From: an uncultured delta proteobacterium
GTDB lineage: Bacteria; Desulfobacterota; Binatia; Bin18
Direction of reading: 5' to 3'
Assembly (NCBI GenBank): GCA_963733195.1
Contig: CAVTCR010000064.1
Span: 21,032 to 85,031, forward strand
DNA length: 64,000 nt
In this document: piece after piece, positions 4,741 to 10,005 of the stretch
How positions within the stretch are numbered: the first letter of the stretch is position 1
Layout: every line of letters starts with the position of its first letter
The notes under the pieces: model-generated
Seen by the model: the letters and a program-made list of their open reading frames with translations, nothing else
What the model was told of the DNA's origin: nothing
Databases searched by the model: none
Translations under genes and position numbers: made by a program

Positions 4741-5523
4741 CTACCCTAGAAAACGAGTTACCGCATTCACGAAAGCTTCTGGCTGTTCATACGGTACCAT
4801 GTGGCCAGCTTGGTCGATGAGGGTAATGTCAGCTTGCGGAATCAGCTTCTTGAATTGGTCGGCATAGACTGGTGGGATTAGCTTGTCGCTCTTGCCCCAG
4901 ACTACGAGAGTAGGGGCAGTGAGACGATACAAACGTTTTGATAACCGACGGTTAGGAATTGGGAACAAGATCTTCCCTGCCATGCTCATGCGTTTCGAGT
5001 TGCCGATGTAGAACTCCTTCAGCGCCTCGGGGTTTTTGAGATCAAGTCCGGCGGTGAGCAGGGTCTCGCCTTGGGCACGATCGTGAAAGAGATACTGGGC
5101 ATATTCATGGGGTAAGAACGAGAAGATGTCCGGAATCGGACTCTTTTCAATCCATAACCCTGCTGAACAGACCAACACCAGTTTTGTCACATCGTTGGGA
5201 GCAAGACTCGCCATCTCGGCAGCAATCATCCCACCCATAGAGTGACCCATCAGGTGTGGCTTATTCAAGCCTAACGCTGAGACGACATCCCAGCCATGCA
5301 GAGTGAAATCGAGCATGTCTTCCAGCAGTTCTTCACCAGTGGATTCGCCGTAAGCAGGGAACTCAGGAGCAAACACGTGATAACGAGTCGCGAGGCGATC
5401 GAGAAACGGATTCTCGGCGAAAAGACCGCCTGCACCGTGCATGAAAACAAGAGGTGCGCCACTCCCCGCCTCAAGTACGCGAACTTTCGCCCCGCGCTTG
5501 GTCTCAATTTTGTGGATCTTCAT
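4741..5523 (-). CDS. Alpha/beta fold hydrolase
   Basis: HGAGG oxyanion loop, GHSMGG nucleophile elbow, WGKSD and AGH catalytic Asp/His; start MKIHKIE coupled to the upstream LLM stop. Confidence 0.9.
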   Translation of the reverse strand: MKIHKIETKRGAKVRVLEAGSGAPLVFMHGAGGLFAENPFLDRLATRYHVFAPEFPAYGESTGEELLEDMLDFTLHGWDVVSALGLNKPHLMGHSMGGMIAAEMASLAPNDVTKLVLVCSAGLWIEKSPIPDIFSFLPHEYAQYLFHDRAQGETLLTAGLDLKNPEALKEFYIGNSKRMSMAGKILFPIPNRRLSKRLYRLTAPTLVVWGKSDKLIPPVYADQFKKLIPQADITLIDQAGHMVPYEQPEAFVNAVTRFLG

Positions 5524-6781
5524 AGCGGGAGCCTCCCGTCCTGCCGTGCTTGTTCTACTGTGGTTTCTGGTTGGAGACGTTCCTCCATCGGCTTGCACCA
5601 CCAGCGGTTGTCGTCTTTCCACTCTGGCCACATGTTACGAAGCTCAGGCATGACTTTCTCGGCGAACAGTTTCGTCGAATAGCGAGTTTTCCAGTCGGGC
5701 ATATTGCCAACATGCATCAGACAGAAAATGTGTCCGACGTGTAGCCCTTTGATAAGTTCTTCCATTTGTTCGCGGACTGTTGCCGGACTTCCGGCAATCA
5801 CATAGCGACCATCGATAGTTCTTTCCAGGAGAGCGAAGGGAAAAGATTCTGCATATCCTCACTTAAGGCATTAAGCACATCTGCTTGTAAGGTCTTAATC
5901 GTGCGATATCCAGGAGCATCAGCGAAACCGCCGTAAATATGCAGGCAGCGGTTATAGAAGTAGTTGACGTGCTCAGCGTACAGCTTCTCTGCTTCTTGGT
6001 CTGTCTCGGCGACACAGATTGTTTGGGCAAACGCTCCACGATAGGGAGATTCATCCTTGCCGCGTTTGGCTACTTGATCCCAGTAGCCATCAAGTAACTT
6101 CTTGCCACGCAGATAGCCAGTGAAAGACAGATAAGAATAGTTATAGTCGTTATCGAGGCAGAAGTCCCACGTTTCAATTGAGCCACCACCAGGAATGTAA
6201 ATGGGTGGGTGTGGTTTCTGAATCGGCTTTGGCCAGAGGTTCACATGACGTAACTGGTTGTATTTGCCGTCAAATGCGAATGGCTCTTCCTCTGCCCACG
6301 CGCGCCTGACAAGTTCATGGGCTTCGGCGTATTTATCACGCGTTAAGGCAGGAATTTGCCCGTAGCAATAATTCGTGTCCATCGAGGTGCCGACAGGGAA
6401 CCCGGCGAGTAGTCGCCCACCAGACATGACATCGAGCATGGCGAATTCTTCGGCGACACGAATAGGAGGATTGTAGAGGGCCAACGAGTTGCCAATCACC
6501 GCGATAGCTGCCTTTGAGGTACGCCGAGATAATCCCGCAGCAATGATGTTTGGTGAGGGCATAAGTCCATAGCCGTTTTGATGATGCTCGTTGCAGCCAA
6601 TACCGTCGAAGCCGACCTGCTCGGCATATTCGAGTTGATCCATGTATTGGTGGTAAACGAAATGGCCTTTCTGTGGATCATACAATTTGTTAGGAATATC
6701 GACCCACACTGAGTGATACTTCTCGCGAAAATCATCCGGCAGGTACGGCCACGGCATCAAGTTGAACCACGTGAACTTCAT
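5520..6781 (-). CDS. Luciferase-like (LLM class) flavin-dependent monooxygenase, 1-bp frameshift near 5817
   Basis: GFDGIGCNEHH, PIRVAEEFAMLD..SGGR, WPKPIQKPHPP; continues as IDGRYVIAGSP...LFAEKVMPELR in ORF 5520-5801. Confidence 0.88.
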
Positions 6782-6807
6782 GCGATCCTCCTTATTCGAT
6801 CGACTTC

Positions 6808-6829
6808 ATATTGATAAGTTACTCAATAG
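6808..6829. promoter_or_regulatory. Palindromic operator resembling the Vibrio LuxR/SmcR binding site
   Basis: ATATTGATAAGTTACTCAATAG (TATTGA-N8-TCAATA) between the divergent LLM and TetR genes; a minus-strand TTGACA at 6846-6851 places the -10 inside it. Confidence 0.7.
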
Positions 6830-6880
6830 AAGATACTGGTAGCTCTGTCAACGTAATACGATGAGCCTACAGTAGAGTCT

Positions 6881-7558
6881 ATGTTGAGTGAGTCAGTAAG
6901 TTCTATCCGTTCTCAACTGGTTGCGCCAAAGCGTTTCCGGGCACGACGTCTTGCCCCGCTGGAGCGGCGTGTGCAACTGCTAGAGTGCGCATTACGCGTC
7001 TTTGCTCGACGTGGGTTAGGGGCAGCACGACATGCGGAGATCGCCAAGGAAGCAGGAGTATCTGTCGCGACCACGTTTTTTTACTTTCCGACCCGGACGG
7101 ACCTTGTGAAGGCGGTGCTTGATGAGGTCGAACGTTTCTATTGTGCAATGGCTGAGCAAACGCACCAGAACTCCCTTCCAGCTCCGCAGGTAATGTTGGA
7201 CCACGCCAAGACCTTTGCCGACTCAGTCGACTCGCACCCCGATTATGCTCGAGTTTGGCTCGATTGGAGTACGGCGATCCGCGACGAAGTCTGGCCACGG
7301 TATCTTCGGTTTCAAGAACGAGTTGTCCAGGTTATGGAACGTACGATTCGTCGAGGACAACAGGAGGGATCTCTCTCGACTGCGCTCGACCCGAGCGACG
7401 AAGCGCATTTACTCTTTGGGTCGGCTCACATGATTGCGCAAATGAAGTTTACTCGACAGTCACCCGAAAAGATTGAACGGTTTCTTCATACACTGGCTCG
7501 TGTCGCTATTGGTGGTCCAACAACAAAACCCATTGTGTCGGTCACCGTTGAGGAGTAA
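6881..7558 (+). CDS. TetR-family regulator, LuxR(Vibrio harveyi)/HapR/SmcR-like
   Basis: HTH ...VFARRGLGAARHAEIAKEAGVSVATTFFYFPTRTDLV and ligand-domain motif VWLDWSTAIRDEVWP, both close to remembered HapR sequence. Confidence 0.85.
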   Translation: MLSESVSSIRSQLVAPKRFRARRLAPLERRVQLLECALRVFARRGLGAARHAEIAKEAGVSVATTFFYFPTRTDLVKAVLDEVERFYCAMAEQTHQNSLPAPQVMLDHAKTFADSVDSHPDYARVWLDWSTAIRDEVWPRYLRFQERVVQVMERTIRRGQQEGSLSTALDPSDEAHLLFGSAHMIAQMKFTRQSPEKIERFLHTLARVAIGGPTTKPIVSVTVEE

Positions 7559-8105
7559 GGAGCTGAGTTTTGAGAGAGGCATCTAGCGGTTTTGCACCTA
7601 ACCAAATCGCGAAATAGGCCGCAGCAAAATCAGCCCCCTCAATGACTCCTTTGGGCTTGCCATTCAGTGCCAGCTCGGTCCCTACTCCTGGAATATAAGT
7701 GAGCGAGTAACGATCACCAGGTTTGACGTTTTCGTACAAGGTGTTGAGCCTATCGAGACGCGATCGAAACGGTGCAACTTGCGCGTCAGGAAAATTGTCA
7801 GCAAGAATCTTCTCTGCGGCTTTACCGAAATCAGCCCCAGCAATCGACCAAAAATATTCCAGCTCAAGCCGCTTGGGAACATCGGTCAACACATCTTCTG
7901 GACGAGTTCCTTCTCCAAGATACAGCGCAGCAACGTAACCTTTGAAGATGACACGATAACGCAGCAAGCCAACGTTGTTCAATGTGAGCGTTGTTGTTCC
8001 AGTTTGGTAGCGATCGGCGAACATGACGCCTTCGATTGTTGCCGCTTGGGCAGCGGTCATCAGAACAACAGACAAAAAGATAACTCTCACGAGAATGACC
8101 GTCAT
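7542..8105 (-). CDS. Chalcone isomerase-like protein (secreted)
   Basis: Signal peptide, LNNVGLLRY..F.GYVAALY, FAAAYFAIWLG..P.D..LK..LL. Confidence 0.82.
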   Translation of the reverse strand: MTVILVRVIFLSVVLMTAAQAATIEGVMFADRYQTGTTTLTLNNVGLLRYRVIFKGYVAALYLGEGTRPEDVLTDVPKRLELEYFWSIAGADFGKAAEKILADNFPDAQVAPFRSRLDRLNTLYENVKPGDRYSLTYIPGVGTELALNGKPKGVIEGADFAAAYFAIWLGAKPLDASLKTQLLTPQR

Positions 8106-8152
8106 TGTTCTACACATTCCTTCGTTGGATGCTTGTCTCTCCGGGCATAACG

Positions 8153-8722
8153 TCATCTCCGTGTAGGCGGGAATCCAGGGATTTGCACCGGTTCTGGATA
8201 TGAGTCATGGTTGTTTTCCTTTGCCAACCAGACGAGAATCGGCATAGCGACGCCCCAAACAATCGCCATCATGATAAAGCTAAAAGTGCGATCTGGATTC
8301 AGAGTGAGTGCACCAAGCTGAGCACCTGAATAGTAACTCACCGGTCCGCCGATAACACCAAGAATTGCTGCTAATCCATATCTCCCAGACAACCAGCGGA
8401 GAGAAGTATGCAATGTTGTGGCAAAGGCTACCCAGAGGGAAACCATCCAGAGCGGACTGATCCATATTCCGGGGCTAGTATTTATAAATGAGAAAACACC
8501 TAGAAGAGCTTGGAGACTATCAAGAACAAAACCGAAAACACCGGCAGTGATAAGGAGGCGAAGTTCCTGGGTATGAGAGTAACCGGACAAGAAATAGAAA
8601 TGGAGTGCGAGTAGCACGAGAACTGAAAAAGGCCCGATGAGCAGATACTGATGGGCTGCACCGAGAACACAGGCAAACCACGTACCGTAGAAGGCAACAA
8701 TATTTACTAAAATTGGATTCAT
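8153..8722 (-). CDS. DUF2878 membrane protein
   Basis: NIVAFYGTWFACV, PLWM..LW..FATTL..SL.WL, GGPVSY..GA.LGA; usual neighbour of cfa/DUF1365. Confidence 0.8.
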   Translation of the reverse strand: MNPILVNIVAFYGTWFACVLGAAHQYLLIGPFSVLVLLALHFYFLSGYSHTQELRLLITAGVFGFVLDSLQALLGVFSFINTSPGIWISPLWMVSLWVAFATTLHTSLRWLSGRYGLAAILGVIGGPVSYYSGAQLGALTLNPDRTFSFIMMAIVWGVAMPILVWLAKENNHDSYPEPVQIPGFPPTRR

Positions 8723-10005
8723 GCGATTGGAAGGGGCGGAAGAATAGGTTTACGTTGGCAAAGAGGTTTGGTCAGCAGCATTTGTACATCACCAATCACC
8801 CGTTCGCGAAATCCCCCTTCGCAGTAACAGAGATAGAACTCCCACATACGGATGAACTCTTCCGAGTAGCCGAGAGCCCGCACGCGGTTGAGATTAGCGA
8901 AGAATCGCTCGCGCCAGTGACGCAGTGTCTCGGCGTAGTGGAGCGTAATGTCCTCCATATGGAACAGTCGCATATCGGTCGCGCGTGCCAGAGACTGGCT
9001 GATCGTTGTGATGGAAGGAATACAACTTCCGGGGAAAATATAACGCTGAATGAAATCAACCGAGCGTTTCGCTTGCTCGTATAATTGATCAGCGATGATG
9101 ATGGCTTGGAGCAGCATTATGCCGTTTGGTTTGAGCAGATTGCTGCAACACGTGAAGTACGTATCATAGAAAGCGTAGCCGACTGCTTCGATCATTTCGA
9201 TCGAGACCAACTTATCATATTGGCCTTTGAGGTCGCGGTAGTCTTGGCGCAAAACAGTTATCTGGTCACTCAGTCCTGCCGCATGCACACGCTGTAGTGC
9301 GAACTCATACTGTTCCTGGGAGATTGTGGTGGTCGTCACGCGACAGCCGTACTGTCGTGCGGCATGTAAGGCAAATGTTCCCCAGCCAGTACCGATTTCT
9401 AGCAAATGATCGTTGGGAGAAAGTTGCAGCTTCTGGCAAATACGATCGATCTTTGCTATCGAAGCGTCCTGTAGTGTACTGTCCTCACGCTCAAAGATCC
9501 CACACGAGTAGGTCATCGTTTCGTCGAGAAACAGGGCAAAAAAATCATTGCCAAGGTCGTAGTGGGCGGCGATATTGTGACGGCTTCCGTTTTTGCTATT
9601 GCGGTGCAAAAAATGAAAGAGCTTGCGTAGTGGGATGGTAAGACGGGCAAGACCAGTTTCTATGCCGTCGAGAACATCGCGGTTACGCGCAATGATCCGG
9701 GTCAATGCAGTAAGGTCATCGCACGACCAAAATCCGCTCATGTAAGCTTCACCTGCACCTACACTCCCACCGAAAGCGATGTCTGTATAGAAGCGCGGAT
9801 CACCAACGTAAATCGTCACCGCGAGTGAACAGATGTCGGTGCGTGTACCGAAAATCTGACAGCTGTCACTTTCGATGAGGGTGATTTCACCGTGCTGTAA
9901 AGTGAGCAAATGAGTCAGTACCGCCTGGCGAGCCAGGCGGGTGAGAAACGTCAGCTGTGCGGTATAGGGAGTTGGTATCGCAGTCGGAACAATTGAGTCC
10001 TTCAT
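8719..10005 (-). CDS. cfa: Cyclopropane/unsaturated fatty-acyl phospholipid methyltransferase (Cfa/UfaM-like)
   Basis: NIAAHYDLGN, M.YSC, LEIGTGWG, SIEMIEAVG, FIQRYIFPG, RMWEFYLCYCEGGF. Confidence 0.9.
   Translation of the reverse strand: MKDSIVPTAIPTPYTAQLTFLTRLARQAVLTHLLTLQHGEITLIESDSCQIFGTRTDICSLAVTIYVGDPRFYTDIAFGGSVGAGEAYMSGFWSCDDLTALTRIIARNRDVLDGIETGLARLTIPLRKLFHFLHRNSKNGSRHNIAAHYDLGNDFFALFLDETMTYSCGIFEREDSTLQDASIAKIDRICQKLQLSPNDHLLEIGTGWGTFALHAARQYGCRVTTTTISQEQYEFALQRVHAAGLSDQITVLRQDYRDLKGQYDKLVSIEMIEAVGYAFYDTYFTCCSNLLKPNGIMLLQAIIIADQLYEQAKRSVDFIQRYIFPGSCIPSITTISQSLARATDMRLFHMEDITLHYAETLRHWRERFFANLNRVRALGYSEEFIRMWEFYLCYCEGGFRERVIGDVQMLLTKPLCQRKPILPPLPIA

Follow-up and report, generated by a model that had tools for sequence, protein, structure and literature searches.

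What does a relative of the Vibrio quorum-sensing master regulators LuxR, HapR and SmcR do in a soil-lineage bacterium outside the Vibrionaceae? The question is raised by a gene at positions 6881..7558 (+ strand) of a 64-kb stretch of DNA (64,000 nucleotides, hereafter the window; contig CAVTCR010000064.1 of assembly GCA_963733195.1) from an uncultured delta proteobacterium of the GTDB lineage Desulfobacterota; Binatia; Bin18. LuxR/HapR proteins are central to quorum sensing in Vibrio, are drug targets, and are usually described as Vibrio proteins. A first-pass annotation of the window had seen a homologue of these proteins in the gene product, and had suggested that it might be an ‘ancestral-type’ ligand-sensing local repressor, or else part of an undescribed signalling or signal-degrading module. 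Our analysis points to the first of these: we consider it probable that the regulator is a local, and presumably ligand-released, autorepressor of the adjacent monooxygenase-hydrolase operon, acting through a LuxR-box operator. The in silico support for this comes from subfamily membership and fold, from an operator that is both conserved and unique within the genome, and from synteny that is conserved across the closest clade.

The ATG-started open reading frame (ORF) encodes 225 amino acids, with a helix-turn-helix (HTH) at about residues 51-72 in a nine-helix TetR fold; its translation includes RRLAPLERRVQLLECALRVFARRGLGAARHAEIAKEAGVSVATTFFYFPTRTDLV and VWLDWSTAIRDEVWP exactly, and it is present as a single copy in its own genome. 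Amongst Pfam families TetR_N (PF00440) scores 42.6 bits, with every TetR C-terminal family under its cut-off, and the best NCBIfam model is NF040929, the equivalog for LuxR/HapR/OpaR quorum-sensing regulators (108.3 bits, E 3.9e-31), followed by ScbR at 54 bits. When PDB sequences were searched with phmmer, 18 distinct LuxR/HapR/SmcR/OpaR sequences matched over query residues of about 17-205, with E-values from 3.2e-33 to 1.2e-25, against 2.6e-10 for the best TetR of any other kind (3vuq); this gap (1e-25 versus 3e-10) sets the broad HapR-like subfamily apart from other TetRs, and the resemblance of the regulator to LuxR/HapR/SmcR is far above chance. The homology that had been proposed is therefore borne out by the PDB matches, and the non-Vibrio lineage by the closest named relatives, which are metagenome-assembled genomes (MAGs) labelled Binatia, Methylomirabilota or Deltaproteobacteria.

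The same annotation had noted a gap-free spacing between the HTH and a downstream W-rich motif, with similarity that extends into the ligand domain, and both observations agree with what we find. In the alignment with SmcR (u114364) gaps occur just twice, once within the N-terminal arm and once close to the C-terminus, such that the spacing from HTH to W-rich motif is indeed gap-free, and the similarity to the ligand domain holds as fold and signature motif in the PDB alignments and in Foldseek. Measured against the Vibrio tritonius protein P0271, 34/59 residues are identical in the DNA-binding domain and 26/134 in the ligand domain (alignment A2). P0271 also reads nearly the same as the HapR strings given in that annotation. 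On sequence, the regulator is a genuine member of the LuxR/HapR subfamily and not an orthologue of the Vibrio regulators, because it scores 108 bits against the curated NF040929 cut-off of 350, lacks the equivalents of N55 and of three residues that contact the alpha subunit of RNA polymerase (RNAP), and keeps just two of 17 pocket residues.

An AlphaFold2 model, for which a family alignment of 109 rows was used, is of high quality (mean predicted local distance difference test, pLDDT, 93.7; predicted TM-score, pTM, 0.84) and has nine helices. When this model was compared with the PDB using Foldseek, all of the chains listed at ranks 1-43 were LuxR, HapR or SmcR. The best match is Photobacterium marinum HapR (8zf2), with a target-normalised TM-score of 0.92-0.93 and a root-mean-square deviation (rmsd) of 1.6 A over 188-189 columns, and the second-placed structure is the LuxR-DNA complex 7amn (0.87-0.88). 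Superposition of the ligand domain, which had been named as a possible point of failure, is thus clear, with the model overlaying LuxR/HapR structures across both domains; over the Vibrionaceae proteins LuxR, HapR, SmcR, OpaR and LitR as a group (2pbx, 3kz9, 7amn, 8zf2, 8zf3) the shared two-domain TetR fold gives target-normalised TM-scores of 0.77-0.93 and rmsd values of 1.6-3.2 A. Both also have an N-terminal arm rich in Arg, as well as the W-rich helix motif VW(L/F)(D/E)WS..RDE.WP, but the regulator is only about 29-33% identical to the Vibrionaceae proteins overall. The next folds after the LuxR/HapR block are TetRs of the fatty-acid/acyl-CoA type, at a Foldseek E-value of about 1e-6: B. 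subtilis FadR (3whb/3whc), C. perfringens 6azh and T. thermophilus PfmR (3vpr), with target-normalised TM-scores of 0.77-0.82. Unlike the LuxR/HapR group, these share just 15-17% identity and no common operator with the regulator, and we take the likeness as a mere lead, in that the modelled pocket may suit a long hydrophobic ligand.

How large the subfamily is, and where the regulator sits within it, bears on whether this is a ‘new system’. Of 1898 candidates from a word-indexed search, 745 proteins matched at E<=1e-3, and the top 120 are 60-100% identical to the regulator. Nearly all of these relatives are metagenome-derived, with NCBI labels that include Methylomirabilota, Binatia/Binataceae, Thermodesulfobacteriota and Myxococcota, and many have been named automatically by the Joint Genome Institute (JGI) after hapR, as ‘hemagglutinin/protease regulatory protein’. 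An exhaustive search of 50%-identity representatives gave 6957 matches at E<=1e-3, 302 at E<=1e-10 and 91 at E<=1e-30; of ten representatives looked up, P0270 is from Vibrio and P0238 from Thaumasiovibrio, while cultivated bacteria other than Vibrio are represented by Agarivorans, Pelagibaculum and the alphaproteobacterium Fretibacter. The claim of novelty consequently falls, the regulator being one member of a very large environmental subfamily already named by JGI after hapR. In a literature search that was judged by titles and the starts of abstracts, and was not exhaustive, we met no description of non-Vibrio HapR-like regulators; the existence of such homologues is, however, already implicit in database annotation.

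For a quick IQ-TREE phylogeny, 155 rows were taken: the window protein, every fourth close hit of 195-260 aa, all representatives of 190-285 aa, two further Vibrio proteins and, as an outgroup, six TetRs from the same genome. The HapR-like ingroup is split from five of the outgroup sequences with a support of 99; the sixth pick (L007) turned out to be a non-homologous ORF (BLAST E 2.8), and falls inside the ingroup on a branch of length 8.7. A Vibrionaceae clade made up of Vibrio and Thaumasiovibrio (support 100) excludes the regulator, and lies within a 22-row group (support 92) together with Agarivorans and Pelagibaculum; the regulator itself lies in a 33-row clade (support 89) within a separate group of 124 rows (support 88). 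Forcing the window clade and the Vibrionaceae clade together, in a 62-row subset, costs 11.3 log-likelihood units, with a p-value of 0.271 in the approximately unbiased (AU) test. Of the expected grouping as sister to LuxR/HapR, then, one part stands, in that the protein falls inside the HapR-like subfamily and apart from other TetRs; a Vibrio sister is absent from the maximum-likelihood tree, yet the AU test does not reject one. By sequence, the regulator is of the same subfamily and outside the Vibrio clade.

The second line of evidence lies in the DNA between the regulator and its divergent neighbour, a spacer of 99 bp (6782..6880) that holds two operators and presumably both promoters. The first operator, O1 (TATTGATAAGTTACTCAATA, 6809..6828), is a perfect TATTGA-N8-TCAATA palindrome that ends 28 bp from the ATG of the monooxygenase gene; the second, O2 (TACTGGTAGCTCTGTCAACG, 6834..6853), is degenerate, with 4/12 core positions off; it is spaced 25 bp from O1 and ends 28 bp before the ATG of the regulator. 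The V. alginolyticus LuxR motif from chromatin immunoprecipitation sequencing is given as TTATTGATAAATTTATCAATAA, a 9-4-9' palindrome of the 9-mer TTATTGATA, with the LuxR box as TTATTGATA-N4-TATCAATAA (PMC8034623); HapR motif 1 is YTATTGA ... AATAR, and such dyad sites are found upstream of hapR orthologues (PMC2677876). Compared by hand, the window 22-mer at 6808-6829 agrees with the V. alginolyticus motif at 17/22 positions (PMC8034623).

We scanned 39/40 related loci from species-representative genomes (L047, with a 24-residue match, was left out) for the 12-base core TATTGA-N8-TCAATA, in a stretch that begins 400 bp before the match start and runs 60 bp past it, and used equal-sized regions 700 bp downstream as controls (n=36). 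A core with no more than one mismatch is present at 32/39 of the related loci versus 0/36 control regions; the best core per locus has no mismatch in 24, one in eight, two in two, three in one, and five in four. When palindromised, the consensus of the related loci reads YTATTGA(T/C)A-N4-T(A/G)TCAATAR; thus on the side of the regulator (YTATTGAYA-N4-TRTCAATAR) the operator core is the same as that of the Vibrionaceae LuxR/HapR group, and the box stands upstream of the regulator's own gene, as it does for hapR orthologues (PMC2677876). At the eight closest loci, O1 and O2, 25 bp apart, form the sole alignable and conserved block of the intergenic region (alignment A3): 5/8 carry two sites with at most one mismatch each at this distance, and the rest one perfect and one degenerate site.

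The box also recurs across clades that have differing neighbour genes. It extends to distant paralogues in two gammaproteobacterial genomes, with two LuxR-box-like sites of one mismatch each upstream of L059, and one perfect and one single-mismatch site upstream of L060. Each of these genomes, G042 (L057, L059, L061) and G171 (L058, L060, L062), has three distant HapR-subfamily paralogues; amongst 300 genomes scored from the class around G042, two gave weak HapR-family matches, none of them over the cut-off.

How many such sites does the regulator have at its disposal? O1 is the one exact instance of the core in the 6.95-Mb assembly (87 contigs, 93% complete). A position weight matrix (PWM) for the family gives 20, 7 and 2 matches at thresholds of >=12, >=15 and >=18 bits, as against 14-19, 4-5 and 0-1 in three block-shuffled genomes, and the three next-best sites all lie within long ORFs, one of which starts like what we take to be an ATP synthase alpha subunit. 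Within the window, two sites have no more than one mismatch in the core, with 0.08 expected. The second of these, at 21563-21582 (TGTTGAGGTTATCTTCAATA), has one mismatch, scores below 12 bits with the PWM and sits within overlapping ORFs; given the low score and the overlapping frames, we regard it as probably due to chance. A regulon of one locus is accordingly only a prediction from the genome sequence, but it would set the regulator, with its one predicted target, apart from the Vibrionaceae proteins with their hundreds.

Residues known from the Vibrio proteins offer a further means of comparison. SmcR numbering was checked on P0271, where an offset of +1 reproduces 26/29 of the named residues. 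Most DNA-contact residues are common to the regulator and the Vibrionaceae group: the equivalents of the backbone and arm contacts R11, R17, R32, S49, T52, Y56, P58, T59 and R60 are retained (roles according to PMC8034623), with that of R11 (R23 in the regulator) kept in 36/37 clade rows. Unlike in the Vibrio proteins, the equivalent of R36 is Ala. The LuxR arm contacts the minor groove through R9 and R11, and the R9 equivalent here is A21, which is flanked by R20 and R22 in an arm whose alignment register is ambiguous. Another change is at N55, which is described as completely conserved among LuxR/HapR-type proteins and as needed both for binding to degenerate sites and for activation; substitution with I, Y, K, S or A abolishes activation, but preserves repression at palindromic ‘repressed-type’ sites (PMC8191795). 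Its equivalent here is F67, with Phe in 31 and Val in 6 of 37 close-clade rows (alignment A2). The RNAP-alpha contacts S76, L139 and N142 (roles: PMC8191795) are C88, V151 and R154 in the regulator, and are variable across the clade.

These findings speak to one alternative, namely that the regulator is a quorum-sensing master in the style of Vibrio: produced at high cell density, controlled by Qrr RNAs, binding many degenerate sites, and in charge of a large regulon of activated and repressed genes. LuxR/HapR is after all the closest family by both sequence and fold, the operator core is identical to the published LuxR/HapR motifs, and the arginine-rich N-terminal arm is in place. Yet the genome has one exact operator, with weaker matches at the shuffled rate; neither N55 nor any of the three RNAP-alpha contacts is present; and the score stays at 108 bits where the equivalog asks for 350. 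In addition, a search for Qrr (RF00378) that was run without a positive control found no match in the genome itself (93% complete; 150 of 230 candidates scored) and none in the 64-kb window at the gathering score, and 14 control genomes, with no Vibrio among them, were likewise without a match. The gene is moreover accessory, being found in 9/24 genomes of the same family and in 0/2 other genomes of the same genus (15/41 of all those searched, its own included). We looked at eight features that define the Vibrio masters, and six are lacking (the large regulon by prediction), the other two being the N-terminal arm, with its ambiguous register, and control by Qrr, for which the search had no positive control; we regard a master-regulator role as highly improbable. 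The regulator departs from the Vibrionaceae group as a soil-lineage, accessory gene that adjoins its target operon and has no Qrr match (again, with no positive control), as well as at N55 (F), S76/L139/N142 (C/V/R) and R36 (A).

What, then, might the regulator control? Directly across the spacer, on the minus strand, lies a two-gene operon. Its first gene (5520..6781, as ORFs 5798..6781 and 5520..5801) encodes a flavin monooxygenase of the luciferase-like (LLM) family PF00296, which scores 118.8 bits on the intact 420-aa orthologue at L010; the second (4741..5523) encodes an alpha/beta-fold hydrolase (PF00561, PF12697) of 260 aa from an ATG at 5523, which overlaps the LLM stop codon by ATGA. 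Neither protein matched a specific NCBIfam family. Among solved structures, the LLM protein is nearest to uncharacterised LLMs and to subunits of luciferase (E 1e-16 or weaker), and the hydrolase to carboxylesterases and meta-cleavage-product hydrolases. The LLM gene is divergent to the regulator in 8/8 of the closest loci (L008-L015), with the hydrolase gene behind it in L010, L013, L014 and L015, the four whose contigs reach far enough. In 7/8 of these loci the LLM protein has an amino-acid identity of 86-93% (the exception, L011, is fragmented and at 68%), versus 63-74% for the regulator, so the enzyme appears far better conserved than its putative controller, as would be the case if it were under strong constraint or had been transferred recently.

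These neighbours leave little of the proposed signalling or signal-degrading module, since both the luciferase-like monooxygenase and the alpha/beta hydrolase are generic. As a candidate, a signal-degrading module was rejected on the grounds that both match generic families only, and that we found nothing specific to lactonases, acylases or autoinducer synthesis; quorum sensing and signal degradation are alike unsupported by any result here.

What the locus does resemble is the arrangement of the classical local TetRs (TetR/TetA, QacR/QacA). A TetR_N HTH is joined to an all-helical ligand domain, and a regulator gene and its target operon diverge from a short spacer that contains palindromic operators; further likenesses, which we infer, are autoregulation and a C-terminal domain with a pocket for a ligand. 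It differs in that the regulator is of the HapR-like subfamily and has a LuxR box, and in that the target is an oxygenase and a hydrolase instead of an efflux pump. The wider family fits the same picture. In a survey of neighbours with a crude gene caller, which missed the regulator in 6/39 loci and left 33, another divergent gene, of about 396 aa and with no Pfam match, lies beside the regulator in 16/33 (L016-L020, L023-L027, L030, L032, L033, L035, L037 and L039), on the opposite strand and directly upstream. That the next clade pairs regulator and box with a different divergent gene is the pattern to be expected of a local TetR, and a constant regulator and operator with a changing cargo are its signature. 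The ESM Atlas places the partner of about 396 aa beside clusters of AurF-like di-iron oxygenases (score 0.97; a lead only), and differing subsets of the loci add a protein of about 165 aa (four loci) and an ORF of 4Fe-4S ferredoxin type (eight loci), such that this gene set may, from its sequence, represent an uncharacterised oxygenase system under the same operator.

Synthesising these findings, we propose the following model for the locus. A homodimer of the regulator would bind O1, and more weakly O2, within the 99-bp spacer, and when bound would shut off both the divergent LLM and hydrolase operon and its own promoter. A small, and probably hydrophobic, ligand that occupies the C-terminal pocket would then release the regulator from the DNA; this ligand may be related to a substrate or product of the neighbouring oxygenase pathway. 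The idea of an ‘ancestral-type’ ligand-sensing local repressor, as first put forward, is thereby favoured by the single genomic operator, by the divergent enzyme operon and by the missing activation residues.

The evidence for a ligand comes from the pocket. Compared with the 17 residues that line the pocket of SmcR (PMC12977469 and PMC5790914), the regulator is identical at 2/17 (W126 and A175) and conservative at five, which again separates it from the Vibrionaceae group. Its clade has a pocket set of its own, with H108, F112, L127, Y141, Q145 and A182 in 37/37 rows and W126, V149 and A175 in 36/37, and this near-invariance argues for a real, conserved ligand site; it is the conserved pocket residues alone that speak for a ligand, and ligand-induced release from DNA is predicted on this basis. 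For the Vibrio proteins, the annotation's statement that no natural ligand has been established is confirmed by PMC12977469 (2026), in which the native ligand of LuxR/HapR is still called unknown.

It is also conceivable that the regulator is local but acts as an activator or with dual effect, or that its control lies elsewhere than with a small ligand, as in the proteolysis shown for inhibitor-bound SmcR. LuxR/HapR proteins can activate, the stability of SmcR is reported to depend on ligand and on ClpAP (PMC12977469), and near-identical contigs of a soil RNA library extend over the 5' portion of the LLM gene as far as 6802, which weakly suggests transcription of the operon. A palindromic box with two half-sites is, however, a ‘repressed-type’ site in Vibrio, the residues for activation are missing from the regulator, and O1 lies so close to the LLM ATG (28 bp) that initiation would presumably be blocked once a dimer is bound; taken together, we think this alternative unlikely.

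A different concern is the state of the module itself. The LLM gene is split by a deletion of one nucleotide between 5816 and 5817 relative to L010, L013, L014 and L015, of which L010 has a single 420-aa frame and the other three are likewise in frame by tblastn. A 271-nt soil contig with 11 differences (96% similar) has one extra base behind 5816, and a complete (100%) genome of the same genus, G002, has an intact LLM gene (98.8% amino-acid identity) as well as the hydrolase (95%). One could therefore suppose that the module is decaying here, with the regulator a leftover beside a pseudogenised monooxygenase and in control of nothing useful now, and the deletion against four orthologues, together with the intact frame in the soil contig and in G002, would agree with this, as would the degenerate O2, the loss of the regulator in G002 and the missing module at the corresponding site of G001 (84% complete). 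Set against it are an intact regulator ORF and a perfect O1; moreover, the frameshift is known from one assembly alone, which is of metagenome type and in 87 contigs, so that an indel of one base may have arisen through faulty assembly. Decay seems to us quite improbable.

The preferred reading of a local autorepressor has nonetheless to contend with several points that weigh against it. The LLM frameshift may mean that the regulated operon is broken here, or that the assembly is wrong. In G002 (L063, G002:C29 1366-1513, compared with 6782-7558 of the window), the LLM and hydrolase genes lie 146 bp downstream of, and on the same strand as, a chalcone-isomerase-like gene, with regulator and operator absent beside them, so that the enzymes do not need the regulator. 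The invariant pocket residues are common to sub-clades with other neighbouring enzymes, which weakens the idea that the ligand is simply the substrate of the neighbour. Many of the 39 loci scanned are close kin, so the operator counts overstate independence, and a simple scan of the 99-bp spacer gave no sigma-70 consensus; promoter positions are thus presumed, as is any overlap of operator and promoter. DNA binding, repression as opposed to activation, and control by a ligand are likewise inferences only.

We have also considered how this branch may relate to the Vibrio regulators. The deep conservation of the operator, the predicted single-site regulon and the missing activation residues are, on the literature searched, new, and fit a derivation of the Vibrio regulators from local repressors. 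One may speculate further that the earliest members of the HapR/LuxR subfamily were local repressors of oxygenase operons, gated by a ligand, and that a single operator ‘word’ has been retained across phyla, with the Vibrio masters derived through N55, the RNAP-alpha surface and Qrr control, a scenario to which we would attach a low probability. Were it to be correct, environmental members with their target enzymes next door would help to show to which chemical class the native ligand belongs, the targets being an LLM and a hydrolase here, and a candidate AurF-like di-iron oxygenase (with ferredoxin in some loci) in the neighbouring clade. For this genome alone the significance is modest, in that it gains another TetR regulator with one target operon. 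For the subfamily it is greater: the subfamily is large and mainly environmental, and the data suggest that the LuxR box is older than its quorum-sensing role and that this branch has a simple local-repressor architecture, so that the locus provides a tractable, non-pathogen model for what the pocket senses, and for which changes make a local repressor into a global activator-repressor.

Some observations on the surroundings of the locus may be added. The contigs of L008, L009, L011, L012, L013, L014 and L015 coincide with genomes of the same family; since these seven closest-locus contigs are same-family, the GTDB family of the window holds MAGs labelled Binatia, Methylomirabilota, Deltaproteobacteria and ‘Enterobacteriaceae’, the last of which we take to be a placeholder. 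On the other side of the regulator, its 3' end overlaps by 17 nt the 3' end of a chalcone-isomerase-like gene (PF16036), the first of a set of co-directional, tightly packed genes on the minus strand (7542-13014), the rest of which, by eye, resemble genes for a DUF2878-type membrane protein, a cyclopropane-fatty-acid-synthase-like methyltransferase, a DUF1365 protein and an amine-oxidase-like flavoprotein. As a target, this cluster was rejected, its genes accompanying the regulator in 0/40 loci and no operator being present there.

In public sequencing data, no run contained half of the words (best share 0.32), and the locus was seen in runs labelled as soil. Contigs of one soil metatranscriptome (X5), which differ at 0-2 positions per 151 nt, tile the LLM gene over its 5' part at 6072-6802 and end at 6802, 7 bp before O1, a point that DNA runs cross; this hints weakly at transcription, with a 5' end close to the operator. 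The regulator itself is uncovered in this RNA run, which is no evidence of silence. Lastly, the window includes a full rRNA operon on the minus strand (14498-19234; 23S at 14498-17457 and 16S at 17672-19234), which identifies the locus as chromosomal.

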